Positions 23,448 to 55,531 of a stretch of DNA of 64,000 bases are shown piece after piece. The stretch lies in contig JAZDHZ010000033.1 of the NCBI GenBank assembly GCA_043805415.1, positions 25,600 through 89,599 of the forward strand, in the 5' to 3' direction. The position numbers and the translations under genes were made by a program. This DNA comes from Candidatus Omnitrophota bacterium (GTDB lineage: Bacteria; Omnitrophota; Gorgyraeia; B26-G9). The notes beneath the pieces were generated by a model. That model saw only the letters and a list, made by a program, of their open reading frames with translations, was not told where the DNA came from and did not search any database. Each line of letters begins with the position of its first letter. Positions within the stretch are counted from its first letter, which is position 1.

Positions 23448-25052
23448 ATGAATATTAAAAATCCCAAAACCATCATTAATCCATGTTTTCTGGAAAATAA
23501 AAGCAAACTATTAAAGCTTTTTTTCATAATACCATTAGGGATCATAGTAACTGCGATCGCGTATTATCTGCTTACACAGATCTTTTACTATTTTCCCGGG
23601 GGTGTAGGTGGGAAAGAGGTATTCCTTTATCCACGTTATTGCTCTCCACAAAATGGTTTACCTTCTGGGGTATTTCATCAATGGCGACAATTAGGGCTAG
23701 TAATAATTACTGGTATTGCTAGTGTTTTTACTGCACTTTATTTGAGCAGAAATAAAAAAATCACATTAGGTAAGTTCCTCGTTGTTATATATATATTGGC
23801 TCTAACCCTAGAATTTATGTTTGTATTGCTTACTCCGAACGGGTTTGGGCATTTAGGATTACAGGCAAAATCAATTAATAATGGGATTTGGTTAAGTTTG
23901 GATGTGATTAATAATACTATTCAGCAGCGCCATTTTAATTTTGTGGATACTCTGAGATATATTTATGTAGATTTGGGAGGGAATAAGTGCGGCTATACTC
24001 TTCCCGGCACTACCCATCCTCCCGGCATTTTCCTGGTGTCAATCGCGATTTTTAGGTTGGCTACTCATATTTTTCGTTTTCTCCATAATCCATCGCTGGC
24101 TTGGGCAATTACTGTGACTTTAATAAATACTCTTTTAATTGGTATGGTTGCTTTAATTGCCAAAGAAGTATTTTCAACGCGTATTGCTAAATTAACTGCG
24201 ATCTTTCTTTTGACTGTGCCTTCTGTGTTAATGCATTTTTCTGCTATGCTGGACGGCATAGCATCTTTATTTACGGCAACCAGTGTTTTTATGATGATTA
24301 AAACTCTGAAATATTTTCGCGAAGATGCCTTCATTAGGAATAGAACAAAATCGTTTTTAATGGGTATGCTTTCTGGATTATTTTTTATGCTTTGTCTGCA
24401 AATGACTTATGGGCATGCTGTACCAATAGGTGCTTTAGTATTAGCTTTTATTGTTTTGGTTGATAAAAAAGATTTTAAAAATTTATCCATGTTTATGTTT
24501 GGGATGATTATGATCGCGCTTATGTATTTTAGTTTTGAATATTTGATAAGCCATGGAACTTCTTTTTGGTTTAAGCGGGCATTCAGAATAGCGAAAATTG
24601 TTGGCAATGGGCTTGCCAGTCGGCCATATCCTTTGTCACAAGTAGCTAATTTTGTTGTGCTTTCAGTAATGGGGGGGATTTTATTCCTTCCCGGTGTTAT
24701 TCTTGTGGTCGGGTATAGCTTTGGTTTTTTATGGCGATTGATCAAAGGGCAATTATCTTTCTCTAATTCCAGAGCTCTCTGCAGGGGTTTTTTATGGTTC
24801 TCTGCGGTATTAGCATTATCATATCTACTTTTTCAAAGGACTGTTCGCCTTGAAACGGAGAGGACATTACATTGGTTTCTTATTTTTATCTGGAGCTTGT
24901 CAGGGATATTCTTTATTTCGATTGATGCTTTCTGCAGAGAAATATTTAGAGGCATGTTTATTCGCAATAAAAAAATTGGTGTGTTAGTTTTTATTTTATT
25001 GCAGTTTGTAATAACCTTGACTTTGGCTATGAGTATTCAAGATTACTATTAA
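23448..25052 (+). CDS. Polytopic membrane protein, possible GtrC/GT-C-like partner of the preceding polyprenyl-P glycosyltransferase
   Basis: About 12-14 hydrophobic segments. The position mirrors the gtrB-gtrC / arnC-arnT arrangement. I recognised no specific motif. Confidence 0.35.
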   Translation: MNIKNPKTIINPCFLENKSKLLKLFFIIPLGIIVTAIAYYLLTQIFYYFPGGVGGKEVFLYPRYCSPQNGLPSGVFHQWRQLGLVIITGIASVFTALYLSRNKKITLGKFLVVIYILALTLEFMFVLLTPNGFGHLGLQAKSINNGIWLSLDVINNTIQQRHFNFVDTLRYIYVDLGGNKCGYTLPGTTHPPGIFLVSIAIFRLATHIFRFLHNPSLAWAITVTLINTLLIGMVALIAKEVFSTRIAKLTAIFLLTVPSVLMHFSAMLDGIASLFTATSVFMMIKTLKYFREDAFIRNRTKSFLMGMLSGLFFMLCLQMTYGHAVPIGALVLAFIVLVDKKDFKNLSMFMFGMIMIALMYFSFEYLISHGTSFWFKRAFRIAKIVGNGLASRPYPLSQVANFVVLSVMGGILFLPGVILVVGYSFGFLWRLIKGQLSFSNSRALCRGFLWFSAVLALSYLLFQRTVRLETERTLHWFLIFIWSLSGIFFISIDAFCREIFRGMFIRNKKIGVLVFILLQFVITLTLAMSIQDYY

Positions 25053-25070: not shown

Positions 25071-26594
25071 ATGGTTACGAGAACTAATAAGGCTATTAAA
25101 GGCACAAGTGTGAGTTTTCTGCAATATGGTTTGCAGATTGTGCTACAAGCTATACTCATGCCTTTAATATTAAAAATAGCCGGGAGAGAAACATTAGGCG
25201 CGTATGCTATTCTAATGCAGGTTATCGGCTACGGAATTCTTTTAGATTTGGGATTTGGAGCAGCCTTAGGCAGATATTTAGCCCAAGCTTTTGGTTTTGA
25301 TGATAATGGTGTTAGATTTGTTCAAACTTTTAATATAGGGCGAACGTTTTACTTATTTACTAACTTAATATTTGGTTTGTTAGTTATTATTTTCAGTTTT
25401 TATGTTAATAAGTTTTTACTTGTTGATGAGAGAATTCTTGCGCAGGCACGATTATCTTTGTATCTATATGGATTGTGGATAATAATTCGCACTCCGCTTG
25501 TTATTTATAATTACAACTTAAATGCTACCCAAAATATGTCTGCTTCAAATCTTATCGCTATTTTAGGAAACGCGAGCAGGTTGATTTTTTCTTTAATTCT
25601 TGTTTTTATGAAGGCAGGGCTGGTTGGGTTGATATCAGCAAACATAATAGCTGAAATAGTAATTTCGGGGTGTAGTTTCATGTACTTCAAAAAAATATTT
25701 CCAATTTATAAGTTTGGCTGGGGGATAAGGGATTGGACATTATTTAAGGATATGTTTGTTTTTGGCAGAAGATATTGGGGAGTTAATGTCGCAGGTTTAT
25801 TAATGTTTGGTACTGATAATATGATTGTGGGCTATTTATACGGAGCAGCAATAGCGTCAGTTTACTACACCACTAAAATACCTGTATTTTTATTATTTCA
25901 AGCAATCTTTAAATTATCTGAAAATGCTTCTCCTGCGGCAAATGAATTATTCGCGAGAAAAAATTTTACTGCGTTACATAATGCTTATTTTAGGTTAATG
26001 CGATATTCAATGCTTTTGGTTGTGCCGCTGGCTTTGGGAATAATAAGTATGAATAGATTATTGGTTTCTGTCTGGGTTAGCCCCCAGCAATACGCAGGTG
26101 ATCTTATGACTATTTCTTGTGCGATTTTTGCAATTGCCGCAGTGTTTAATAATGTAAACGCTACAATTGTTGTTGTTTTTAACAATATACGCGATTGGTC
26201 TACTGTATCGATTGTATCGGGAATAGCGGGTTTATTATTAGCATTACTTTTAGGTAAGTCTTTGGGTTTTCAAGGGGTCGCTGTTTCAATAGTTTTAACT
26301 TGTTTGCCTAGTTTAATATTTCTCTTGCGCCGTAGTATGCAATCTCTTAGAATTAATTTTGCACAATTATGGAAAGAAGTGTATAAACCAACAATAATTT
26401 CCAGTATTCCTATAGCGATATTGACTATCATTATAAAGTATTATCAGGTAACACCTTCAGTTAGAGCTCTATTTATGCTCACTGGGCTATATGTCATATT
26501 CTGGATTATTGGAGTTTACAGCTTTGGTATAAATGATAAAGAGCGGAATACTATTAACCATTATTTGCAATTAAAGTTTGCGGGGAATATATGA
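25071..26594 (+). CDS. Wzx-like polysaccharide flippase (MOP superfamily), second copy
   Basis: 507 aa, about 12-14 TM, with an N-terminus typical of Wzx/polysaccharide biosynthesis protein families. Confidence 0.6.
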   Translation: MVTRTNKAIKGTSVSFLQYGLQIVLQAILMPLILKIAGRETLGAYAILMQVIGYGILLDLGFGAALGRYLAQAFGFDDNGVRFVQTFNIGRTFYLFTNLIFGLLVIIFSFYVNKFLLVDERILAQARLSLYLYGLWIIIRTPLVIYNYNLNATQNMSASNLIAILGNASRLIFSLILVFMKAGLVGLISANIIAEIVISGCSFMYFKKIFPIYKFGWGIRDWTLFKDMFVFGRRYWGVNVAGLLMFGTDNMIVGYLYGAAIASVYYTTKIPVFLLFQAIFKLSENASPAANELFARKNFTALHNAYFRLMRYSMLLVVPLALGIISMNRLLVSVWVSPQQYAGDLMTISCAIFAIAAVFNNVNATIVVVFNNIRDWSTVSIVSGIAGLLLALLLGKSLGFQGVAVSIVLTCLPSLIFLLRRSMQSLRINFAQLWKEVYKPTIISSIPIAILTIIIKYYQVTPSVRALFMLTGLYVIFWIIGVYSFGINDKERNTINHYLQLKFAGNI

Positions 26595-27605: not shown

Positions 27606-28367
27606 ATGAAAAAAGTAGCCATGATGTTTTATCGTTTATTAATTCCGATGCTTGACCCTTTGCAGTTAATTCGAGGTTTATTTGCTTATCCAGGGTATAT
27701 AAGGGATTGGTTAAGTTATGCCAGTATGCATGGTGCTGAGATGCTGTCTATTTTCGATGCCCAGCCGCAATTGCATGAACGTACTGAAGTTACCAAAGTT
27801 GATGCCCATTATTTCTATAGCAGCGGTTGGGTTATGCGACGCATATTAGCTAATCATCCATTGCGGCATGTAGATATTGGTTCATCGGTTATGTATGTTA
27901 ATCTTCTTAGCGCAGTGCTTCCTGTAACTTTTGTGGATTATCGTCCTTTAGACGCGAGTATAGAGGGTTTAACTAACTGCAGCGGAGATATTCTTAACTT
28001 GCCTTTTAAGGATCGTTCGATTAATTCTCTTTCCTGTTTGCATGTGGCTGAACATGTTGGTTTGGGCCGATATGGTGATGCCCTTAATCCTTATGGGACT
28101 CAACAGGCTTGTGCTGAGTTAATGCGGGTATTGTCTCCGGGAGGTTATCTCTATTTTGCCCTGCCGGTTGGTAAACAGAGGGTATGTTTTAATGCCCACA
28201 GAATCTATAGTCCAAAGACGATAGTTGATTATTTTGCAGGCCTTGAACTCGTAGAGTTTTCCGGAGTTCATGATAATGGGTGTTTTGTTGAACAAGTGGG
28301 CTTGGATGAATTTTTTAAATGCCGCTACGCTTGTGGGATGTTTATATTTAAAAAAAAGGCTGATTAA
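27606..28367 (+). CDS. DUF268-family predicted SAM-dependent methyltransferase
   Basis: VDIGSS...LPFKDRSINSLSCLHVAEHVGLGRYGD matches the DUF268 pattern (class I MT-like). Strong RBS GGAGGAG. Confidence 0.55.
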   Translation: MKKVAMMFYRLLIPMLDPLQLIRGLFAYPGYIRDWLSYASMHGAEMLSIFDAQPQLHERTEVTKVDAHYFYSSGWVMRRILANHPLRHVDIGSSVMYVNLLSAVLPVTFVDYRPLDASIEGLTNCSGDILNLPFKDRSINSLSCLHVAEHVGLGRYGDALNPYGTQQACAELMRVLSPGGYLYFALPVGKQRVCFNAHRIYSPKTIVDYFAGLELVEFSGVHDNGCFVEQVGLDEFFKCRYACGMFIFKKKAD

Positions 28368-28369
28368 AT

Positions 28370-29836
28370 ATGATTTTTGGAAAAGAAAGAATCATTTATC
28401 CTTACGCGCGTAACCTATTGTTTTTGTTGGCGTTGCTAGCTTCGTTATATATAATAGGGGTTATTGTAGTGAATGATTATCAGATTATTGTGCCAGTAAC
28501 TTGGCTGATTTTTATGGGTTTATTTTCTATTTACAAATATACAAATAAAAATAGAAGGTACTATACTCCGATAATTTTGACTATTTTTTATTTTTTTGGG
28601 TATTTGCTTTCCTTAGCAAATACCCTTATGAACAAAAGCAATCTGCGCGCTATTGGATTTAAAGCAATAGGTTCTTTTGGTTTTTCATTTTGGGAATATC
28701 TTTCGCTCACTTTTATTATTAGTACGGGTATGCTTGGTATTTTGTGTTCCGTGGTATTTATGGAAAAATTTAAAAACTCATGCCGATCTTTGTTTAGGTA
28801 TTTTAATCCTAATAAAAAGCAAATTATTAGGATTAATTATGTAATAATTAGTTTATTGATATGGTTTTTAATTTCAACAGCAATTTTTTTATATATGAAC
28901 AAAATTGGAATAGGAAGAACAGGGTTAAAACCGGAAACCCTTTTACCTTTTAAATTAGTGGGCATATTATTCTATGTAAAATTGATATTGATTCCTTGTT
29001 TAGGCTGTTTTTTGTTTGGGGTAATATTGGAAACAAACAATAAAATACTTATAAATCTGTCAATAATATTACTTATTCTTTTGGGTATAATAGGGTCTAT
29101 TTCGGGAATAAGCAGGGGTAGTTTAATCTTTAGTGTCTTACCCTCATTTATCTATATGTTATTTAAAAGTCATAAAAATGATTTTAAACGAAAAATACTG
29201 AAATCATATTCAATAATAGCAATACTTTTACTTATGATATTGATTCCGCTGGTGCTAGGCATGAGAAATATAGGGTATGCTGGTGGAAAAATAGATTTTA
29301 GCACGGCCATTAATATTTTAAAGTCTTTTAAGGTAGCTGATTTGCCTGGCGCAGCAGGATCGCTTATTTCGTTGATATTAGATAGAGTCATGGGAATAAA
29401 TGAATTGTATGCTGTTTTTAGCTCAGGAATTAAAGACTTGTATGCGCCATGGGCTCTTTTTATCACTGATGGCGCTTACTTGGAAAAAATCATAAAAGCT
29501 GTTTTTGGATTTGTCCCCTCTAATGAAGGGAATTTAGCTTTTGGGGTTGGTTTTGGTTTATGGGGAGTTTTGCAGTTAAGTGGAAGCTATAGTGTAATTT
29601 TTCTAGGTACCTTCGTGGCATGTAGTTTATCAATGGCTATAGAAGAGATATTTATTCGCAATGGGATGTATTATGTAGCTTGTTTTTTCGCGATCAATTT
29701 TGGCATGCTAGTATGGGAGGGATTGTATGTTTCAAGGTTAAGCCGTACTTTATTAATGATATTTATTTGTTTAATTATAACAGTAAGTTTGAAGAAGTTA
29801 TTTTATAGACGTATAACATGTGAAACGAGTTTGTAG
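28370..29836 (+). CDS. Polytopic membrane protein, possible Wzy-type repeat-unit polymerase
   Basis: 488 aa with about 12 TM. It has no Wzy_C motif, and the call rests on context only. Confidence 0.3.
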   Translation: MIFGKERIIYPYARNLLFLLALLASLYIIGVIVVNDYQIIVPVTWLIFMGLFSIYKYTNKNRRYYTPIILTIFYFFGYLLSLANTLMNKSNLRAIGFKAIGSFGFSFWEYLSLTFIISTGMLGILCSVVFMEKFKNSCRSLFRYFNPNKKQIIRINYVIISLLIWFLISTAIFLYMNKIGIGRTGLKPETLLPFKLVGILFYVKLILIPCLGCFLFGVILETNNKILINLSIILLILLGIIGSISGISRGSLIFSVLPSFIYMLFKSHKNDFKRKILKSYSIIAILLLMILIPLVLGMRNIGYAGGKIDFSTAINILKSFKVADLPGAAGSLISLILDRVMGINELYAVFSSGIKDLYAPWALFITDGAYLEKIIKAVFGFVPSNEGNLAFGVGFGLWGVLQLSGSYSVIFLGTFVACSLSMAIEEIFIRNGMYYVACFFAINFGMLVWEGLYVSRLSRTLLMIFICLIITVSLKKLFYRRITCETSL

Positions 29837-30826: not shown

Positions 30827-31753
30827 ATGGGTTTATTAGAATATACAAAATGTCCGTTTTGCGAATCAGGCAAATATAAACAGTTATTTTCAGGAAAAGA
30901 TTTTCTTTTTTCTAAAGAAGAATTTTCAGTTGTAAAATGTCAAGATTGCGGATTGCGATATACTAATCCGCGGGTTAAACAAGATCAGATAAAAAGTTAT
31001 TATTATACTGGATACTCTTCATATGAAAGTCCTGATTTAGGACTTAATAAAAAAAATAAAAACGTATTATATCGTTTTTTTGGAAACATTCATTTTGAAG
31101 TATTGGAATTCATTAAATCAGTCAATGCCAGAACTGTATTAGAAATCGGGCCGGGGAACGGGAGTTTGCTTTATTTTTTAAAAGATCAAGGTTTTGATGT
31201 TTGCGGGGTTGAATTGGATAGTAGTTCTGCCCAAAAGATCATGGAGCATGGTGTCAAGTGTTATTCAGGAGATTTAAATTCTGTTATAAGTGAGATGAGT
31301 GGGAAAAAGTTTGACATTGTAATCCTATGTCAGGCATTTGAACATTTATATAACCCTAAAATGACACTAACTAATATACATAAAATTCTGAATGATAATG
31401 GGGCTCTTTATCTGAGTTTGCCTAACAGCGGTTCAATGGAGGCAAGACTATTTGGAAAGTTTTGGCGGGGGTTTGATTTGCCTCGGCACATTGTACATTA
31501 TGATAAAAAAACGATTAAATCAATGCTAAATAAATCAGGATTTAGTGTTATTGCCCAGTACAATCAAAATTTCCCATCGTCTTTTGTGGAGAGTCTTGGT
31601 TTTTGCTTATTCAGGAAAAGAAAGATATCTACTAAATTGTATTATTTTTTATACTATTTATGGAAATTGATTAGTCCGATTCATTTAAGGCTAATTGGTT
31701 CAGGGGTTATGACAGTAATATCAGTTAATCAAAAGGGTTGTGAAAGAAAATGA
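30827..31753 (+). CDS. Class I SAM-dependent methyltransferase with N-terminal zinc-ribbon (paralogue of 21448 and 60952)
   Basis: CPFCES...CQDCGLRY zinc ribbon, VLEIGPGNG motif, and C-terminal LPN...W...DLPRHIVHYD. Confidence 0.75.
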   Translation: MGLLEYTKCPFCESGKYKQLFSGKDFLFSKEEFSVVKCQDCGLRYTNPRVKQDQIKSYYYTGYSSYESPDLGLNKKNKNVLYRFFGNIHFEVLEFIKSVNARTVLEIGPGNGSLLYFLKDQGFDVCGVELDSSSAQKIMEHGVKCYSGDLNSVISEMSGKKFDIVILCQAFEHLYNPKMTLTNIHKILNDNGALYLSLPNSGSMEARLFGKFWRGFDLPRHIVHYDKKTIKSMLNKSGFSVIAQYNQNFPSSFVESLGFCLFRKRKISTKLYYFLYYLWKLISPIHLRLIGSGVMTVISVNQKGCERK

Positions 31754-33114
31754 AGATCTTGTTTGTGAATGCAATAGACATTTCTAAAGGGATAGAGACG
31801 GCTTATCCTCCGTTGGGACTAGCATATTTATCCGCTATTTTGAAAAATAATTTTAAGGATATTCAGATTAAAATTATTGACCGTGATGTTGAGCCAGTAA
31901 TTAAATCTTTTTGTCCTGATGCAGTAGGGGTTTCATCGGTTTCCCAAAATTATGGGAGAGCTATTGAAGTGGGGAGATTGTGTAAATCATTGCAAATCCC
32001 CGTGTTTATCGGCGGGGTGCATATCACGTTACTTCCGGAATCTTTGTCAGCGGAATTTGATTTCGGGGTGTATGGAGAGGCTGAAGAGACAATTATTGAT
32101 ATTATTAAGTATTTTAAAAAAAGTATCCCATTAGATTGCATAGGATTGGCTGATATTAAAGGGCTTATTCTACATGCGCAGGATGGAGTAAAATTAACTG
32201 CCCCAAGACCTCTTATTGAGAATCTTAATTCGATCCCTTTTCCAGCTAGAGATTTATTGAGTATTCCCATAGGACAGAGTACATATATGTTTACTTCCAG
32301 AGGATGTCCTTATAAATGTGCTTTTTGTGCTTCTACGAGATTCTGGAATAATGTTAGATGGTTCTCGGCTGAATATGTTGTGAATGAAATAGAAGAAATA
32401 ATAAGGAAATATAAGCCGTTTGCCATATCTTTTTATGATGACCTTTTTATTGCCAATACCAAGAGACTTGAGAAAATCATTGACCTACTGTGTGCTAAAG
32501 GTATAAATAAAAAAGTTAAATTTAGTTTTGCTTGTCGGGCTAATCTTGTTAATGAGAAATTGATTAAAATTTTAAAACCTTTGGATATTCAGATGATTTG
32601 TATGGGATTGGAATCCGGTTGTCAAAAGACATTGAGCTATTTGAAGGGAAGTGCAATTACGATTGAGCAAAATAAAAAAGCCATAAATATTTTCGCAGAT
32701 GCTAAGATCAATATTCAGGCCACGTTCATTATTGGGTCTCCTGAAGAAACTGAGGACGAAATATTGCAGACATTGCAGTTTATTAAGGACAGTAAACTTA
32801 CCAATTTTGAGGTGTACCTGCTGAGCCCTTTTCCCGGGACTCCGGTTTGGGAAACTGCTAAATCAATGGGATTGGTTTCCAATCAAATGGATTGGGCAAA
32901 ATTAGCAGTAGATTCTCAAAATTGCTTTGACAACAGGATAATACTGTCTAAGATAAGTAAGACCAGGCTTTCTGAGTTATACGGACTTTTTTCTCATGAA
33001 AAGAAAAGAAGGAAAATACTTTATATACTTAAAATGGGAATTTGTAATCCATTATGGGTGCTAACAAAAGCACGCGCTGTTATTTTAAATGTTTTACAAG
33101 GTAAAGATAGTTAA
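31750..33114 (+). CDS. B12-binding radical SAM enzyme (class B radical SAM methyltransferase candidate)
   Basis: N-terminal cobalamin-binding-like Rossmann region and SRGCPYKCAFCAS (CX3CX2C). Confidence 0.75.
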   Translation: MKILFVNAIDISKGIETAYPPLGLAYLSAILKNNFKDIQIKIIDRDVEPVIKSFCPDAVGVSSVSQNYGRAIEVGRLCKSLQIPVFIGGVHITLLPESLSAEFDFGVYGEAEETIIDIIKYFKKSIPLDCIGLADIKGLILHAQDGVKLTAPRPLIENLNSIPFPARDLLSIPIGQSTYMFTSRGCPYKCAFCASTRFWNNVRWFSAEYVVNEIEEIIRKYKPFAISFYDDLFIANTKRLEKIIDLLCAKGINKKVKFSFACRANLVNEKLIKILKPLDIQMICMGLESGCQKTLSYLKGSAITIEQNKKAINIFADAKINIQATFIIGSPEETEDEILQTLQFIKDSKLTNFEVYLLSPFPGTPVWETAKSMGLVSNQMDWAKLAVDSQNCFDNRIILSKISKTRLSELYGLFSHEKKRRKILYILKMGICNPLWVLTKARAVILNVLQGKDS

Positions 33115-44397: not shown

Positions 44398-44497
44398 ACC
44401 GTATTTTTCAGTTTTAAACGATAATGACTTTAATAACTGAGGATTTGTTGTCTTCAATCTGTGTGTATTTTATGGTTATTTTGTTTGAGGATTCGTG

Positions 44498-44506
44498 TGC
44501 TATAAT
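44498..44506 (+). promoter_or_regulatory. Extended -10 promoter element TGcTATAAT
   Basis: TGCTATAAT at 44498-44506 in the 210 bp gap, about 100 nt upstream of the strongly SD-led small ORF. Confidence 0.4.
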
Positions 44507-44607
44507 ATATGCTATATTCCTGTAGTTTGGGCTTATGAGTCATATTTTAAATTAAAATCATTGATTTGTTAATATGGGCCAAAATGAAAATTTAAAAAGG
44601 GGGCAGG

Positions 44608-44826
44608 ATGTTTAATTTAAAAAGGAATTTTTATTTCCGATTATGTATGGTTATTTTAATCTGTATGTTTTTCACAAAAAACGCTTATGCTTATTTAGAT
44701 CCGGGAACTGGAAGTTATATTATACAAGTATTAATTGGCATTGTGATGGGCGGGATTATTACCATTAAGTTCTATTGGAAAAGGATTAAAGATTTTTTAA
44801 AGAATCTCTTTAACCCGCAAAAGTGA
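44608..44826 (+). CDS. Small single-pass membrane protein (72 aa), translationally coupled to downstream gene
   Basis: Strong SD AAAGGGGG 5 nt upstream of the ATG, one hydrophobic helix, and the stop overlaps the next start (ATGA). Confidence 0.5.
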   Translation: MFNLKRNFYFRLCMVILICMFFTKNAYAYLDPGTGSYIIQVLIGIVMGGIITIKFYWKRIKDFLKNLFNPQK

Positions 44827-46208
44827 TGAAACTTATTAAACCTATTCAAAGCTCTTTTAGAGATCCGAGCGGTTTCCTTTTTTTTCGGAATGGCTTGCTG
44901 TGTCGTCAGATAAATAAAATATATAAGGAAGAGTATGATCATTTGATGATCTCAGGCCTTTATAATAGGCTTGTAAAAGAGAAATTACTTATACCGCATG
45001 TTGAAACAGAGGGGATAGCCGGACAAATTGAAGCCTATAAAATTGTTCAACCAGAATTCATACCTTTCATTTCCTATCCTTACGAATGGTGTTTCAGCCA
45101 GTTAAAGGACGCAGCTTTAACAACATTAAAGATACAAAAAATAGCTATTGAATCAGGTATGTCTTTGAAGGACGCAAGTGCGTATAATATACAATTTAAC
45201 GAGGGCAAACCTGTATTAATAGATACTCTGTCTTTTGAAAAATATAATGAAGGCAAGCCTTGGATTGCGTATAGACAGTTTTGCCAGCATTTTCTTGCGC
45301 CTTTATCTTTGATGAGCCTTACCGATGTTCGAATGAGCCAACTTTTTAGGGTGTATATAGATGGTATCCCTTTAGATTTGGCGAGTCTATTATTACCTAA
45401 AAATAGCTGGTTAAGGTTTTCTTTATTTTTTCACATTCACATTCATGCTAGAGGACAGAAACATTTTGCTGACAAGCAAGTTGATACACAAAGGCATAAA
45501 TTAAGTAAATTGTCCTTATTGGGAATAATTGAAAATCTTGAAAAAACAATACAAAAATTCAACTGGAGACCTAAGGGAACTGAATGGGCTGATTATTACG
45601 CTAATACTAATTATTCTGCTGAGGCGCTACAGCATAAAAAGGATATTGTAGCCGAATTCTTGTCCAAAGCTGATCCGAAAACTGTATGGGATATTGGCGC
45701 CAATGAAGGGGTATTTAGCGGTATTGCCAGTGATAAAGGGATAAAGGTGGTATCTTTTGATAACGATCCTGCGGCAGTGGAAAAAAATTACCTTAAGTGT
45801 AAATTACAAGAAGAAACAAATACTCTGCCTTTGTTGATCGACATAACTAATCCGAGCCCGGGCATCGGATGGGAAAATGAGGAAAGAGAGTCTTTTATAA
45901 AACGCGGTCCCGTGGATATGGTTTTGGCACTGGCCTTGGTACATCATTTAGCGATCTCTAATAATGTCCCATTAAATAAAATCGCTAACTTTTTTAGCAA
46001 TATTTGTACTTGGTTGGTTATTGAATTTATTCCCAAATGTGATTCGCAGGTCCAAAGGCTTTTGGCAAACAGGGCGGATATCTTTTCGAATTATACTCAG
46101 CAGGATTTTGAAGTTTCTTTCCAAGATGATTTTTTAATACTCCAAAAGGTACGGAATATAGACTCTCAGCGCATACTTTATCTTATGAAAAAAAAGGGGC
46201 ATGATTAA
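44823..46208 (+). CDS. Bifunctional kinase-like (N-terminal) / class I SAM methyltransferase (C-terminal) protein
   Basis: N-terminal Gly-rich FRDPSGFLFF, LKDASAYN (D-x4-N catalytic-loop spacing) and LIDTLSFE (DFG-equivalent) fit a protein-kinase/APH/Kdo-kinase-like fold. C-terminal VWDIGANEGVFS is SAM motif I. Confidence 0.55.
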   Translation: MMKLIKPIQSSFRDPSGFLFFRNGLLCRQINKIYKEEYDHLMISGLYNRLVKEKLLIPHVETEGIAGQIEAYKIVQPEFIPFISYPYEWCFSQLKDAALTTLKIQKIAIESGMSLKDASAYNIQFNEGKPVLIDTLSFEKYNEGKPWIAYRQFCQHFLAPLSLMSLTDVRMSQLFRVYIDGIPLDLASLLLPKNSWLRFSLFFHIHIHARGQKHFADKQVDTQRHKLSKLSLLGIIENLEKTIQKFNWRPKGTEWADYYANTNYSAEALQHKKDIVAEFLSKADPKTVWDIGANEGVFSGIASDKGIKVVSFDNDPAAVEKNYLKCKLQEETNTLPLLIDITNPSPGIGWENEERESFIKRGPVDMVLALALVHHLAISNNVPLNKIANFFSNICTWLVIEFIPKCDSQVQRLLANRADIFSNYTQQDFEVSFQDDFLILQKVRNIDSQRILYLMKKKGHD

Positions 46209-47607
46209 TAAAATAACGATACATCCATATTGTTTCGCATTATATTATATATTACTTGCAGCTACCACGCAATTCAGGCCGGCTTTATTGAATTTATTTT
46301 TTTCGACTTTAATTCTATTAGCGCTAGTGTTGGTATTCCATCTGATATTGTGGTTCAGGCTTAGGGATATTTTGAAGGCCGGGATTATCGTTACTATTAT
46401 TTTATTCTCGTTTTTATTTTATTCACAGATATATCAGATGGTTTCTGATATATCTACTAAATTAGCCAGGCACAGATTTCTCGTTTTTGGAGTATTAACT
46501 TTTACGATTTCATCAATTTTTTTCATTACAAAGACAAAAAAAAAGCTGTGTAATCTTAATTCCTATCTTAATCTTGTTTCCGTGGCATATGTTATTTATG
46601 GAATAATACTGGTATCCCAAACATACGCAAAGCCTTATGATAGTTCGCTGGAAAATCAAGTTTATGATATTAAATTCGAAAAAAGTGCGAGTAGCGTGGA
46701 GGAAATAAAGAAATTACCGGATATTTATTATATTATTTTAGATAGCTATACCAGTTCAGCTGCTCTAAAGAAATACTTTAGTTATGATAATAATGAGTTT
46801 GTGCATAATTTACAAAAAAGAGGATTCTATGTAGCAGAAACTAGCCGTTCGTTTGCAAATTCCACTGCTATTTCCATAGCTTCAACCTTTAATATGACTA
46901 ATGATCATAGATTATTAGCTGAACCTACCGAAATTTGCATGAAATTAATCGAAAATAGTTTGGTAGTAAAATATTTGAGCTCCCGATCATATGAAATAAC
47001 AAATTATTCTTTATTTTGCTTAGCTGATAAACAGCCATATTATACATATTTTTCATCTTTCAATGGATTCAATCCCTGGAAAATGTTAGAAAATAACCTT
47101 TTCAATGTAGCCTTCCAAAATTTTCAAAACGGAGATATGTATAAGATTAATAAGAGCATAATTTTCGAATTAAAGCGAATGCCCGAGGTCAGGCAAAATC
47201 AGCCGAGATTTATATATGCTCACCTGTTTATTCCTCATGAGCCTATGATATTAGATCGGGAGACAAACATTATTCCGTGGTGGAAACGCAAAAGTATTTT
47301 AGATAAGAAGGCCTATGTTGAACAGGTGCAAGGAACAAATAAGTTAGTTTTGGAAGTAATCGATAATATATTGGGTAAATCAAAAGTTCAGCCAGTTATT
47401 ATTATACAAGGAGATCACGGGTATAGACATGGGGAACATTCCAAGGTGACCGGTTTTTCCATATTAAATGCTTATTATCTTCCTGATAAGGATTATAAAT
47501 ATTTATATCCGAACGTTTCTCCTTTTAATTCTTTTAGGATAATATTCAATCTATATCTAAAGACTAAATATGAATTATTAAAGGATGATTATTGGGGCAA
47601 TGAATAA
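46201..47607 (+). CDS. Membrane-anchored sulfatase/alkaline-phosphatase-superfamily transferase (LtaS/EptA/OpgB-like phospho-substituent transferase candidate)
   Basis: Five N-terminal TM helices, then IILDSYTS (sulfatase N-terminal motif) and QGDHGY near the C-terminus. Confidence 0.6.
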   Translation: MINKITIHPYCFALYYILLAATTQFRPALLNLFFSTLILLALVLVFHLILWFRLRDILKAGIIVTIILFSFLFYSQIYQMVSDISTKLARHRFLVFGVLTFTISSIFFITKTKKKLCNLNSYLNLVSVAYVIYGIILVSQTYAKPYDSSLENQVYDIKFEKSASSVEEIKKLPDIYYIILDSYTSSAALKKYFSYDNNEFVHNLQKRGFYVAETSRSFANSTAISIASTFNMTNDHRLLAEPTEICMKLIENSLVVKYLSSRSYEITNYSLFCLADKQPYYTYFSSFNGFNPWKMLENNLFNVAFQNFQNGDMYKINKSIIFELKRMPEVRQNQPRFIYAHLFIPHEPMILDRETNIIPWWKRKSILDKKAYVEQVQGTNKLVLEVIDNILGKSKVQPVIIIQGDHGYRHGEHSKVTGFSILNAYYLPDKDYKYLYPNVSPFNSFRIIFNLYLKTKYELLKDDYWGNE

Positions 47608-50355: not shown

Positions 50356-51558
50356 ATGAGAATGAAAGAAAAAATAATACACTTTCTTAAAAATACACTC
50401 TTGGCAAATATAGCAATTTTTATAATACTTGCTCCTTTTTCCAAAAAAGCTATTAAGATCAGTCTGCTCATTGCTCTTTTTTTATGGATAGCCATAACAA
50501 TAGCGGAGTTTGGAAGCAATTTTTACAAGCATTTAATTACAAGAATACCAATCGCCATACCGTTGGAATTATTTTGGATAGCACTTTTACTGTCGACTGT
50601 TTTTAGCCTGGATCCGTATTATAGCCACGCTGTTTTACTGGAACGCTATTTAGGTTATATTCTATTTTTTCTCTTGGGGTGCTATCTGGCAAAAGATATT
50701 CGGATGATTTATTGTCTGGTAGGGGCAACTCTGTTTGGGGGGATAGTGATTGGAATCGGAAGCTTGTGGAATTATGTTCAGTTTCAACCTGTTCGATTAT
50801 ACGACTGTTTCAGGTATTCGATCAGTCTTGCTCGTTTTCTAGTCCTTTACACGCCTATAACTTTTATTGTTTTGTTTTTTGTAAAAAATAAATTCCTTAA
50901 ATTTATCGCACTGGTTAGCGGCTTACTTTTAGTCCCATGTTTAATTCTTAACGCTGCGCGCGCGGCCTGGGTTTCAGTTTCTTTTTCTCTTTTAATCGTT
51001 TCTTTTTTTAAGAGTCGAAAACTTGCTTGTTGTGTGTTGATTTGTATTATTATAATTGGTCTATTTTTGCCTTTGCAGTTAAAATGTCGGGCAATTACGA
51101 CTGTTAATCCACTGACATGGGGCGAAAGATTGCCTTTGTGGAAGATGTCACTGCAAATGTTTGCTGATTTTCCAGTATTTGGGACAGGATTGGGAATGCG
51201 TGAGAAGCTTTTCACAAGTTATTGGCATAAATCGGCTCTATTCCCCCGATTCCAATATCAAGATGCGCATAATAATTATTTAGAAATCGCATCAGAATCA
51301 GGCAGTATTGGTTTAATCGCGTTTATATGGATTTTTATCGCTTTTTTTAAGCATGTGTTTGCAGCTATTAAAAAAATGTCAGGAGACCGGCAAGCGGTAT
51401 TAATGACTTTTACCAGCAGTGTTATCGCTGCTTTGCTTTTTGCCTGCTCTGCTTCAAATATTACTGGCGGAGTTGAGGAGGTCGTGGTATTCTGGTTTAT
51501 TTTCGGCATGGCTTCGGGGCTAAGCGGATTAAGAGAGAATCAGGAAACTATAGCATAA
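50356..51558 (+). CDS. O-antigen ligase family protein (Wzy_C domain; WaaL or Wzy)
   Basis: Polytopic protein with AHNNYLEIASESGSIGLIAF, which matches the Wzy_C HNxxL...E.G..G signature. Confidence 0.7.
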   Translation: MRMKEKIIHFLKNTLLANIAIFIILAPFSKKAIKISLLIALFLWIAITIAEFGSNFYKHLITRIPIAIPLELFWIALLLSTVFSLDPYYSHAVLLERYLGYILFFLLGCYLAKDIRMIYCLVGATLFGGIVIGIGSLWNYVQFQPVRLYDCFRYSISLARFLVLYTPITFIVLFFVKNKFLKFIALVSGLLLVPCLILNAARAAWVSVSFSLLIVSFFKSRKLACCVLICIIIIGLFLPLQLKCRAITTVNPLTWGERLPLWKMSLQMFADFPVFGTGLGMREKLFTSYWHKSALFPRFQYQDAHNNYLEIASESGSIGLIAFIWIFIAFFKHVFAAIKKMSGDRQAVLMTFTSSVIAALLFACSASNITGGVEEVVVFWFIFGMASGLSGLRENQETIA

Positions 51559-54037: not shown

Positions 54038-55531
54038 ATGAAGGTAATAATTTCTTATCCGCCATTAAATAAAGAAAAGGGAACGCCTTTACTTTCTCAG
54101 AATAGGCAGTTTCAATATTTTAAAGATCCGACTTATATTTATCCGGTTGTTCCAGCGCAAGCGGCATCACTGCTTAAACGGGAAGGATTTGATGTTATCT
54201 GGAATGATTGTATTGCCATGGACTGGGAGTATCAGCGGTTTATCGAGTTCATAAACAATGAAAAACCTGATATTATAGCAATGGAAACAAAGACACCTGT
54301 TGTTAAAGAACACTGGAAAATCATCAACGACATTAAAAGACTATCGACCATTGACTATCGACCATTGACTGTTTTATTCGGCGACCATGTTACCGCAATG
54401 CCTGAGGAATCAATGCAAAATTGCCAGGTTGATTTTGTGCTAACAGGAGGTGACTATGATTTTCTGTTGTTAAATTTGTGTAATGCATTAAAAGCCACAA
54501 GCCACAAGCCGCAAGCCGCAAGCATAAAGGATAAATTAGAGCAGGGCATTTGGTATAGGAAAACAGGACAGATAAAAAACACAGGGAAGTTTGAACTGAA
54601 ACATGATCTTAATACTCTTCCGTTTATTGACCGCGATTTAACCCAGTGGAAATCATACGCTTATAAAAATGGTAATTACAGAAAAACTCCGGGAACTTAT
54701 ATTATGAGCGCACGGGATTGCTGGTGGGGGACGTGCACTTTCTGTTCCTGGCCCCAACTTTTTCCTGAATTTAGAAGCCGAAATCCGGAAAATGTGCTGG
54801 ATGAGATCGAGCTGTTGGTGGATAAATTTCAGGTTAAGGAAATAATGGATGATTCCGGGACATTTCCTGTGGGGAAATGGCTGAAAGAATTTTGTTTGGG
54901 AATGATTGACCGGGGTTTGCATAAAAAAGTTACGCTTGATTGCAATATGCGTTTTGGCGCTTTGAGCTTTGAAGAATATAAATTGATGCAAAAAGCCGGT
55001 TTTCGTTTCCTTCTCTTTGGTATTGAGTCAGCTAATCAAAAAACGCTTGATAAGATAAAGAAGGGTCTAAAAGTAGAAGACATTATCCCGAGCTGTAAAG
55101 ATGCCAGACGCGCAGGGCTTTATCCGCATATTACCATAATGTTCGGCTATCCCTGGGAATCCTATGAAGATGCCCAAAATACCCTTAAACTGGGGAAATT
55201 CTTATTAAAAAAAGATTATGCTTATACCATGCAGTCAACAGTGGTTGTGCCTTATCCGGGAACTCCTTTATTCGAAGAATGCAAGGCTAATGACCTTTTA
55301 TACAGCACGAATTGGGAAGATTATGACATGAAGTGTCCGTTAATGAAAACAGATTTTTCCAAGGAAAAGCTTTTACAGCTTGTCCAGAGCCTTTATTCTG
55401 TCAGCTATTCCCCGGAATTTGTGGCCAGGAAAATTCTTAGCATTAGAGAGTTTGATGATATAAAATATTTCGGCCGGGCGTTCATGAAAGTTGCTGGGCA
55501 TATATTTGATTTTAAAAAGAAAAAAGCGTGA
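54038..55531 (+). CDS. B12-binding radical SAM enzyme with atypical CX4CX2C cluster motif and in-frame heptamer-repeat insertion
   Basis: N-terminal B12-binding-like domain, then DCWWGTCTFCSW. The repeat-encoded KATSHKPQAASIKD segment lies between the two domains. Confidence 0.65.
   Translation: MKVIISYPPLNKEKGTPLLSQNRQFQYFKDPTYIYPVVPAQAASLLKREGFDVIWNDCIAMDWEYQRFIEFINNEKPDIIAMETKTPVVKEHWKIINDIKRLSTIDYRPLTVLFGDHVTAMPEESMQNCQVDFVLTGGDYDFLLLNLCNALKATSHKPQAASIKDKLEQGIWYRKTGQIKNTGKFELKHDLNTLPFIDRDLTQWKSYAYKNGNYRKTPGTYIMSARDCWWGTCTFCSWPQLFPEFRSRNPENVLDEIELLVDKFQVKEIMDDSGTFPVGKWLKEFCLGMIDRGLHKKVTLDCNMRFGALSFEEYKLMQKAGFRFLLFGIESANQKTLDKIKKGLKVEDIIPSCKDARRAGLYPHITIMFGYPWESYEDAQNTLKLGKFLLKKDYAYTMQSTVVVPYPGTPLFEECKANDLLYSTNWEDYDMKCPLMKTDFSKEKLLQLVQSLYSVSYSPEFVARKILSIREFDDIKYFGRAFMKVAGHIFDFKKKKA
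54331..54358 (+). repeat. 14-bp (2x7) perfect tandem duplication CTATCGACCATTGA x2 inside radical SAM gene
   Basis: Read directly from the sequence. It encodes STIDYRPLTV. Confidence 0.9.
54493..54520 (+). repeat. Heptanucleotide tandem repeat (AAGCCRC)x4 (= CCRCAAG register) inside radical SAM gene
   Basis: aagccac aagccac aagccgc aagccgc. It shares the CACAAG core with the hisH and hisF-leader repeats. Confidence 0.9.

Follow-up and report, generated by a model that had tools for sequence, protein, structure and literature searches.

A three-gene unit related to the Lani_1193/NoeA/NoeB cassette in a glycan cluster of an uncultured Omnitrophota bacterium

Arrangement of the three genes

What do three overlapping genes, encoding a small membrane protein, a kinase-like protein fused to a methyltransferase, and a larger membrane protein, contribute to the glycan cluster in which they are found? 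The locus was analyzed within a stretch of 64,000 nt from an uncultured Omnitrophota bacterium (the window). All three reading frames were located on the + strand exactly where the first-pass annotation had placed them, and the following features were assigned.

44608-47607, + strand: three overlapping open reading frames of 72, 461, and 468 aa (read as ORFs), inside a large Wzx/Wzy-type glycan cluster
44597-44603, + strand: Shine-Dalgarno sequence AAGGGGG, read from the sequence, 4 nt 5′ of the small gene's ATG at 44608
44608-44826, + strand: small membrane protein of 72 aa, Lani_1193 family, ATG start; homologues lie 5′ of kinase-methyltransferase genes
44823-46208, + strand: bifunctional protein of 461 aa, NoeA/Lani_1194 family by homology to NoeA; start at GTG 44823 or ATG 44826
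44844-45572, + strand: atypical protein-kinase-like domain (residues ~8-250 of the 461-aa protein)
45585-46205, + strand: class I SAM-dependent methyltransferase domain (residues ~255-461 of the 461-aa protein)
46201-47607, + strand: membrane protein of 468 aa, NoeB/Lani_1195 family by family-level PF00884 matches and alignment to the NoeB profile

The Shine-Dalgarno sequence is as strong as had been claimed, and on that side the small gene is separated from an FnlC/WecB-like gene by an intergenic gap of 210 nt. Matches were at chance level both in a promoter scan of this gap and in a terminator scan around the cassette, and composition analysis gave no foreign-island signature. Where the small gene meets the 461-aa gene, the sequence reads ...CAAAAGTGATGAAA. 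An ATGA overlap had been described here, but the sequence gives either GTGA, in which a GTG start at 44823 overlaps the stop of the small gene, or TGATG, if translation begins at ATG 44826. The proposed translational coupling of the two genes is supported by their overlapping reading frames. Further downstream, the 468-aa gene overlaps the 461-aa gene by 8 nt. Elsewhere in the window, a Wzx-like Polysacc_synt_3/MatE protein is encoded at 25071-26594 and a Wzy_C protein at 50356-51558; no ABC transporter family was present among the families listed in Pfam scans of the window ORFs.

The kinase-methyltransferase

The 461-aa protein was matched to noeA on pSymA of Sinorhizobium meliloti by tblastn (34% identity, 98% coverage, E = 7e-67) and, over residues 8-457, to the NoeA protein by BLASTP (E = 3e-86). 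Its full-length homologues number more than 8,000, at 63-73% identity, and relatives occur in at least 571 GTDB species. An exhaustive HMMER search with a profile of the N-terminal domain recovered 4604 cluster representatives at 50% identity, and the best 150 matches listed consisted only of full-length family members and fragments. The family is very large and unusually conserved, with members in many bacterial phyla and in some archaea. Hydropathy analysis gave no transmembrane segment for the 461-aa protein, which is cytoplasmic.

Its N-terminal domain has an atypical protein-kinase fold, with the D-N-D catalytic set intact and Arg in place of the β-3 Lys. The kinase-like spacing noticed at first reading was recovered: LKDASAYN forms the catalytic loop D117-x4-N122 (nt 45171-45188), and LIDTLSFE contains the DFG-equivalent D134 (nt 45222-45224), 12 residues past N122. 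Both motifs, as well as FRDPSGF (residues 12-18), a glycine-containing N-terminal stretch, were invariant or nearly so among 39 homologues, and R28, D117, N122, and D134 were invariant in the homologue alignment. We propose R28 as the equivalent of PKA K72; equivalents of PKA D166, N171, and D184 are retained, as in an atypical kinase. The kinase-like half of the NoeA family has no Pfam model. Direct searches of the domain against Pfam, NCBIfam, and PDB sequences returned nothing useful, its profile had no match in the PDB, and a phmmer search of the 461-aa protein against all PDB chains (E ≤ 10) gave 3e8s as the sole match.

The C-terminal domain matches the methyltransferase fold. It comprises motif I (W289-D-x-G-x-N-x-G296, nt 45684-45710), two acidic residues after β-2 (D313 and D315), and a conserved N343-P-S-P after β-4. 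The suggested fusion of a kinase-like domain to a class I SAM methyltransferase stands. No biochemical activity has been reported for any member of the NoeA/NoeB cassette families, and a search of the recent literature on kinase-methyltransferase glycan enzymes found nothing relevant.

The two membrane proteins

A hydropathy scan of the 72-aa protein gave two hydrophobic segments. Residues 1-28 end in A-Y-A directly before the conserved motif YLDPGTGS (residues 29-36, nt 44692-44715), and this first segment looks, from its sequence, like a cleavable leader. The motif is followed by a transmembrane helix (residues ~37-55) and a basic tail, KFYWKRIKDF. The mature peptide of ~45 aa would be single-pass, with a predicted N-out/C-in topology. 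The earlier description as a single-pass protein would apply to this mature form. The Tyr, Asp, Thr/Ser, and Ser of YLDPGTGS are invariant across homologues, and no conserved Ser, Thr, or Tyr occurs in the cytoplasmic tail among the aligned homologues. A literature search on the motif found nothing relevant. In S. meliloti, the small gene 5′ of noeA encodes the counterpart of the 72-aa protein (E = 2e-12), likewise a YLDPGTGS peptide, and overlaps noeA.

The 468-aa protein itself had no Pfam, NCBIfam, or PDB sequence match and stayed below every Pfam and NCBIfam threshold. Among its 2328 homologues, many carry PF00884, and Pfam Sulfatase (PF00884) was matched by 32 of 37 family members. The family profile aligned with NoeB over 390 columns (hhalign probability 97.2%, E = 2.9e-11). 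Because of these homologue matches and the match to NoeB, the protein can be assigned by sequence to a divergent sulfatase/alkaline-phosphatase family. A search of the PDB with the same family profile in HMMER found no EptA or LtaS chain, and the partner protein in Singulisphaera carries the PGAP name 'LTA synthase family protein'. For Lani_1195, an HHpred match to EptA has been reported (3.2e-27; PMC9758233 supplement), and the designation of the downstream protein as LtaS/EptA-like with a sulfatase fold agrees with all three lines of evidence (PF00884, NoeB, and HHpred).

Hydropathy gave four clear transmembrane segments (residues 32-50, 57-80, 93-111, and 121-143) and a weaker one at ~9-27. 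Four segments of the 5-TM anchor ascribed to this protein are thus evident, whereas the fifth, N-terminal one is less so; five helices, or four to five within residues ~9-143, are plausible. The catalytic domain (residues ~170-468) is probably extracytoplasmic. D181, T222, S225, H341, H346, D405, and H406 show no or almost no variation in the family alignment, and by analogy D181, T222/S225, H346, and D405-H406 may represent metal-ligand-like and nucleophile-like residues.

Identity and conservation of the cassette

The trio is almost certainly the Omnitrophota copy of a portable Lani_1193/NoeA (Lani_1194)/NoeB (Lani_1195) cassette, judging from the homology to NoeA, the homology to NoeB, the small-peptide homologue overlapping noeA, and the published description. 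It adds no new kind of system, as the cassette was already described in 2022 as Lani_1193-1194-1195 in Legionella anisa, without an assigned function (Krysinska et al. 2022; PMC9758233). Genetic work had already established the founding members of the family, noeA and noeB, as host-range genes in 1995. Cultured carriers of the cassette include S. meliloti, L. anisa, Singulisphaera, and Thermincola.

Gene neighborhoods were surveyed at 80 reference loci. The small gene lay directly 5′ of the kinase-methyltransferase gene in 66 of 76 loci, and a NoeB-like gene was present in 41 of 65 (directly downstream in 32). Since roughly one locus in three has no NoeB-like gene next to the cassette, the peptide and its kinase-methyltransferase may work without this protein. 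No fourth gene conserved with the cassette was found in the survey. Dozens of unrelated genomes show the identical order of genes, which puts the arrangement far beyond chance; together with these counts and the overlapping frames, this upholds the view of the trio as a single functional unit. Identity among the kinase-methyltransferases is 54-66% from phylum to phylum, archaea included, in contrast to 24-32% for the NoeB-like partner at the same loci. The high conservation of the former could also reflect recent horizontal spread; some copies of the cassette are plasmid-borne and adjoin IS elements.

The link to glycan genes inferred on first reading was recovered as an enrichment among neighboring genes, though not a universal one. 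The window cluster is of glycan type, and in a set of 130 neighboring genes the families GT2, GT1, NTP-transferase, and Wzy_C were found repeatedly. The cassette of Dehalococcoidia lies between an STT3/AglB oligosaccharyltransferase gene and sugar-nucleotide genes, that of S. meliloti follows nodL, and that of Legionella anisa follows an OafA acetylase gene. Some loci, among them those of Anaerolineae adjoining a topoisomerase gene, are without nearby glycan genes.

Possible function

Three observations narrow the mechanism: the Wzx/Wzy- and oligosaccharyltransferase-linked loci, the YLDPGTGS peptide partner, and an inner enzyme conserved to a far greater degree than its outer partner. The chances appear evenly balanced that the cassette decorates an envelope glycan or glycolipid by phosphoryl and methyl transfer. 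Against such a role, Ardourel et al. reportedly found in 1995 that noeA and noeB mutants had no detectable change in Nod-factor structure.

As a specific route we tentatively suggest one via a donor lipid, although it is by itself rather unlikely to be the correct one. The basic cytoplasmic tail of the peptide would tether the kinase-methyltransferase to the cytoplasmic side of the membrane. There, with ATP and SAM, the enzyme would add phosphoryl and methyl groups to a membrane-bound substrate common to all lineages, possibly a polyprenyl-phosphate-linked intermediate or the head group of a lipid. The modified product would then move to the outer face, and the NoeB-like enzyme would transfer the methylated phospho-group to the envelope glycan of the host, as EptA, LtaS, OpgB, and BcsG use lipid head-group donors. 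The target in the window might be a FucNAc-containing Wzx/Wzy-type polysaccharide. An invariant inner substrate combined with lineage-specific outer acceptors would fit the unequal conservation of the two enzymes. Also in favor of this route, the kinase-methyltransferase has no transmembrane segment yet is tied to a membrane peptide, and the characterized enzymes of the EptA/LtaS class use phospholipid donors. On the other hand, we know of no flippase for the proposed donor and of no other kinase-methyltransferase that produces a donor lipid. If true, the donor-lipid route would constitute a previously unrecognized, portable, two-sided glycan-decoration system of bacteria and archaea, and would at last account for noeA and noeB as host-range genes.

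Several other explanations have to be considered. The glycan might be modified directly at the cytoplasmic face, the kinase phosphorylating a sugar hydroxyl and the methyltransferase O-methylating that phosphate, on a lipid-linked repeat unit or, in rhizobia, on the lipo-chitooligosaccharide. This would correspond to WbdD chemistry, with the NoeB-like enzyme separately adding a second phospho-substituent outside the membrane; we consider it unlikely. The small peptide could also be the substrate rather than an anchor, such that its YLDPGTGS stub or its tail is modified by the kinase-methyltransferase and perhaps also by the NoeB-like enzyme. The outcome, a membrane peptide altered in a RiPP-like manner or in one resembling the phospho-form pilin modification by PptA, would serve as signal or carrier. 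The peptide gene is indeed the most faithful and a translationally coupled partner, the motif offers its invariant Tyr, Asp, Thr/Ser, and Ser, a co-inherited peptide would account for the conservation of the enzyme across phyla, and some EptA-class enzymes (EptC, PptA) modify Ser/Thr of proteins. In the predicted topology, however, YLDPGTGS lies on the outer side of the membrane and the enzyme on the inner side, the cytoplasmic tail lacks conserved Ser, Thr, and Tyr, and we know of no precedent. We regard this reading as distinctly improbable. Even less probable is the synthesis of a soluble head group by an ethanolamine/choline-type kinase combined with a phosphoethanolamine N-methyltransferase, yielding phospho-(N-methyl)ethanolamine or phosphocholine for the decoration of a glycan or lipid.

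The first-pass annotation had raised an analogy to WbdD; in a reading of this type, the enzyme would add methyl-phosphate to the non-reducing end of a polymer under synthesis and thereby set chain length. The 461-aa protein and WbdD have in common their kinase and methyltransferase domains and their glycan-cluster setting. The domain order is opposite, as had been recognized at the outset: in the 461-aa protein the kinase precedes the methyltransferase, which in the model forms the C-terminus with no coiled coil predicted. Moreover, the phmmer search against all PDB chains (E ≤ 10) gave no similarity to WbdD, the cluster contains a Wzx-like flippase and a Wzy_C protein but no ABC transporter among the families listed, and the cassette is also found away from polymer clusters. 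Finally, the family named as WbdD-like in the Legionella study is that of Lcin_0519, itself only remotely related to WbdD (PMC9758233). WbdD-type capping, as a mechanism of termination or length control, was therefore rejected on the grounds of the reversed domain order, the missing coiled coil, the lack of sequence relation, and the Wzx/Wzy-type cluster; we consider it the least credible of these explanations and scarcely probable at all.

Comparison with known systems

WbdD of E. coli O9a is an O-antigen terminator consisting of methyltransferase, kinase, and coiled coil (PDB 4ax8), and it operates in an ABC-transporter (Wzm/Wzt) pathway, of which nothing was seen among the window families listed. 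The model of the 461-aa protein ends in the methyltransferase β-sheet, without a long terminal helix. WbdD also has neither a small-peptide partner nor a partner of the alkaline-phosphatase fold, unlike the 461-aa protein, whose family is a distinct kinase-methyltransferase family separate from WbdD. The 468-aa protein resembles EptA/MCR-1, LtaS, OpgB, and BcsG in combining an N-terminal multi-TM anchor with a C-terminal sulfatase-fold domain.

The closest counterparts are NoeA/NoeB of S. meliloti (nodL-noeA-noeB operon, nod box n5) and Lani_1193-1195 of L. anisa, to which all three proteins are homologous and with which the trio shares gene order and overlaps. NoeA and Lani_1194 have the atypical kinase residues (Arg for Lys, with D/N/D kept) and the methyltransferase motifs in common with the 461-aa protein. 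The distance from S. meliloti is nevertheless considerable, with 34% identity to NoeA and a NoeB-like partner detectable only by profile. Whereas the known units lie in a nod operon or next to OafA, the copy in the window is part of a Wzx/Wzy cluster of an uncultured Omnitrophota bacterium.

Organization of the cassette

Three ORFs were read from the sequence at the positions reported in the first-pass annotation, all on the + strand:

44608-44826, + strand: small membrane peptide, 72 aa
44823-46208, + strand: kinase-methyltransferase, 461 aa
46201-47607, + strand: sulfatase-like protein, 468 aa

The strong Shine-Dalgarno sequence described for the small gene was found again (AAGGGGG, 4 nt before the first ATG). 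The ATGA overlap described between this gene and the next was misread, as the stop and the following start actually read GTGA or TGATG. The 461-aa and 468-aa genes overlap by 8 nt. Ahead of the cassette lies an AT-rich, non-coding gap of 210 nt (44398-44607) in a cluster that is otherwise tightly packed and operon-like. An internal promoter or regulatory element may be present in this gap; consensus scans across it gave matches no more than chance.

The encoded proteins

For the 461-aa protein, the sole match in curated libraries was a sub-threshold methyltransferase (residues 274-377), and the N-terminal half had no match in these searches. The kinase-type motifs proposed for this half (D117-x4-N122 in LKDASAYN and, twelve residues on, D134 in LIDTLSFE) are invariant in 39 homologues. 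Predicted folds and conserved catalytic-type residues bear out all three earlier domain calls, i.e. the kinase-like N-domain, the methyltransferase, and the sulfatase-like partner. More than 8,000 full-length homologues with 63-73% identity were detected across widely differing lineages, archaeal MAGs among them, and the number of GTDB species with a relative is at least 571. A profile search with the N-domain retrieved 4,604 cluster representatives (at 50% identity). Fusion of the two domains appears to be the norm, since full-length proteins among the best matches listed have ~455-470 aa. No TM segments were found in the protein. Residues 343-346 (45849-45860) form an invariant N-P-S-P after beta-strand 4 of the methyltransferase domain, also kept in NoeA of S. 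meliloti. We take this motif to resemble the (D/N)PP(Y/F) of amino-group methyltransferases, a likeness that points tentatively to N- instead of O-methylation.

The 468-aa protein itself had no match in curated libraries, but many of its 2,328 homologues carry PF00884, and 32 of 37 aligned relatives matched Pfam Sulfatase. Invariant residues of the family (D181 in PDIYYIILD-x-Y, T222/S225, H341...P-H346, and Q-G-D405-H406-G) fit an alkaline-phosphatase-superfamily site and have putative catalytic roles by analogy. Hydropathy indicated 4-5 N-terminal TM segments. P0121, the 389-aa gene call deposited for this protein, begins ~80 residues later than the ORF and agrees with part of it at 100% identity. 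The N-terminal TM region that it leaves out is conserved in homologues (e.g. an H-P-x-L motif near residue 8), which makes it likely that the long ORF is correct and the deposited call truncated.

Small-peptide homologues from 68 loci share the motif Y-[LI]-D-P-G-[TS]-G-S, followed by one TM helix and a basic tail (consensus K-x-[YF]-W-x-[KR]-[IV]-K-x-F). A hydrophobic leader with an A-x-A end directly before the motif is present in most; those of Chloroflexota have none and begin a few residues ahead of the motif. Judging by charge distribution, the mature peptide would be ~45 aa long, with the 8-residue motif outside the membrane and the tail inside. A Dehalococcoidia peptide (loci L081/L082, 9742-10017) carries the variant YIDAGTGS (Pro to Ala), with a partial duplicate, SIDAGTSG, ~14 residues before it, an arrangement that looks like a duplication of the motif.

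Conservation and genomic context

The cassette was surveyed in 80 loci from reference genomes. Of the 76 loci with sufficient flanking sequence, 66 had a small gene as the immediate upstream neighbour of the kinase-methyltransferase gene. A sulfatase-like gene was present in 41 of 65 loci, in 32 of them directly downstream on the same strand. No further gene family travelling with the cassette was found among the surveyed loci. Median identity to the window proteins across these loci fell from 58.7% (kinase-methyltransferase) through 44.5% (peptide) to 27.4% (sulfatase-like protein). At two Aminicenantes loci (L032 and L034) the order is small peptide, sulfatase-like gene, kinase-methyltransferase, so that the peptide gene keeps the leading position although its two partners are swapped.

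Among 130 flanking genes, GT2 (9), GT1 (5), NTP-transferase (4), and Wzy_C (3) recurred, alongside housekeeping genes, and in one Dehalococcoidia genome the cassette stands between an STT3/AglB oligosaccharyltransferase gene, upstream, and sugar-nucleotide genes, downstream. Homologues thus do co-occur with glycan genes, contrary to the pattern that the first-pass annotation named as refuting its proposal; such genes are enriched around the cassette without being universal there. A Singulisphaera plasmid carries the trio as well, with the partner annotated as 'LTA synthase family protein'. Plasmid-borne cassettes on Singulisphaera acidiphila pSINAC01 (locus L085, 4847-4897) and S. meliloti pSymA (locus L084) lie beside IS elements (IS4, ISRm1), which would fit horizontal spread. 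On pSINAC01, tblastn detects the small ORF, which the (incomplete) PLSDB gene table does not list.

In the window, the trio is embedded in a long glycan locus, all on a single strand:

5′ of the trio: GT4-type genes and an FnlB/FnlA/FnlC-like set for a 6-deoxy-N-acetylhexosamine
3′ of the trio: PglC-like initiating phosphoglycosyl transferase, PglF-like dehydratase, Wzy_C protein, GT2 genes
25071-26594, farther from the trio: Wzx-like flippase

Additional glycosyltransferases, several methyltransferases, two B12-radical-SAM enzymes, and sugar-nucleotide enzymes also lie farther away. No ABC transporter family was seen among the families listed for the window's ORFs. The polysaccharide made by this cluster may be heavily methylated, possibly C-methylated, as suggested by the two B12-binding radical-SAM enzymes (31750-33114 and 54038-55531), at least four stand-alone SAM methyltransferases (21448, 30827, 35724 [C-methyltransferase], and 55555), and a DUF268 protein (27606-28367). 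Two ORFs of 534 and 488 aa (23448-25052 and 28370-29836), one adjoining the flippase gene, matched no Pfam family at E<=1e-6 and may encode divergent polymerases or membrane proteins.

Possible function

The peptide and the sulfatase-like partner are of membrane character, the genes are translationally coupled, and the cassette is conserved and has glycan-rich neighbourhoods. Phospho/methyl decoration of a glycan by the trio, as first proposed, is plausible in outline. The peptide would tether the kinase-methyltransferase to the inner face of the membrane, where this enzyme would phosphorylate and methylate a membrane-bound substrate; the NoeB-like enzyme would then transfer a phospho-group outside the membrane. 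The version that we favour, for all that we give it a low probability, has the inner enzyme preparing an invariant lipid-linked donor and the outer enzyme transferring from it onto lineage-specific glycans. It is favoured because the inner enzyme is strikingly conserved and the outer one divergent, because the cassette moves between unrelated glycan loci, and because lipid head groups serve as donors for characterised enzymes of the EptA/LtaS class. Viable rival schemes would have the glycan methyl-phosphorylated directly in the cytoplasm, the small peptide itself serving as the substrate, or the inner enzyme making soluble phospho-(N-methyl)ethanolamine.

Comparison with known systems

WbdD, the methyltransferase-kinase-coiled coil terminator of the E. 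coli O9a O-antigen, gave the closest structural match to the methyltransferase domain of the 461-aa protein. The likeness breaks down in three respects: the two domains come in reverse order and the coiled coil is absent, no sequence similarity is detectable, and the window's cluster is of the Wzx/Wzy type, whereas WbdD belongs to an ABC-transporter-type pathway. For these reasons, and because the family regarded as WbdD-like in PMC9758233 is another one (Lcin_0519), the chain capping initially considered is unlikely.

A closer counterpart is found in Legionella anisa (Krysinska et al. 2022; PMC9758233). Lani_1194 is an atypical kinase fused to a class I methyltransferase, with Arg in place of PKA K72, equivalents of D166/N171/D184 kept, and the alpha-C glutamate not found; the fusion is kept in 94% of ~2,000 homologues. 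Its neighbours are Lani_1193, a ~65-aa hypothetical protein conserved in 65% of 816 neighbourhoods, and Lani_1195, an alkaline-phosphatase fold (EptA HHpred match 3.2e-27) conserved in 38%. The same study identified S. meliloti NoeA and NoeB as homologues. In our comparisons, the 461-aa protein aligned with noeA on pSymA across 98% of its length (E 7e-67 at 34% identity; BLASTP 3e-86) and NoeB matched the 468-aa family profile (hhalign 97.2%, E 2.9e-11, 390 columns). An annotated 71-aa 'hypothetical protein' overlapping the noeA start is the same small peptide (E 2e-12; junction ...VPAHA|YLDPGTGS...). Because of these three matches, the trio is, as judged by homology, a new member of an already described family, and novelty is limited to that of a new member of a known cassette of putative function. 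Our additions to this family are modest: (i) how the small peptide is built, and that it also lies upstream of noeA; (ii) the conservation asymmetry between inner and outer enzymes; (iii) occurrence in Wzx/Wzy and oligosaccharyltransferase contexts; and (iv) a much larger size and wider taxonomic range.
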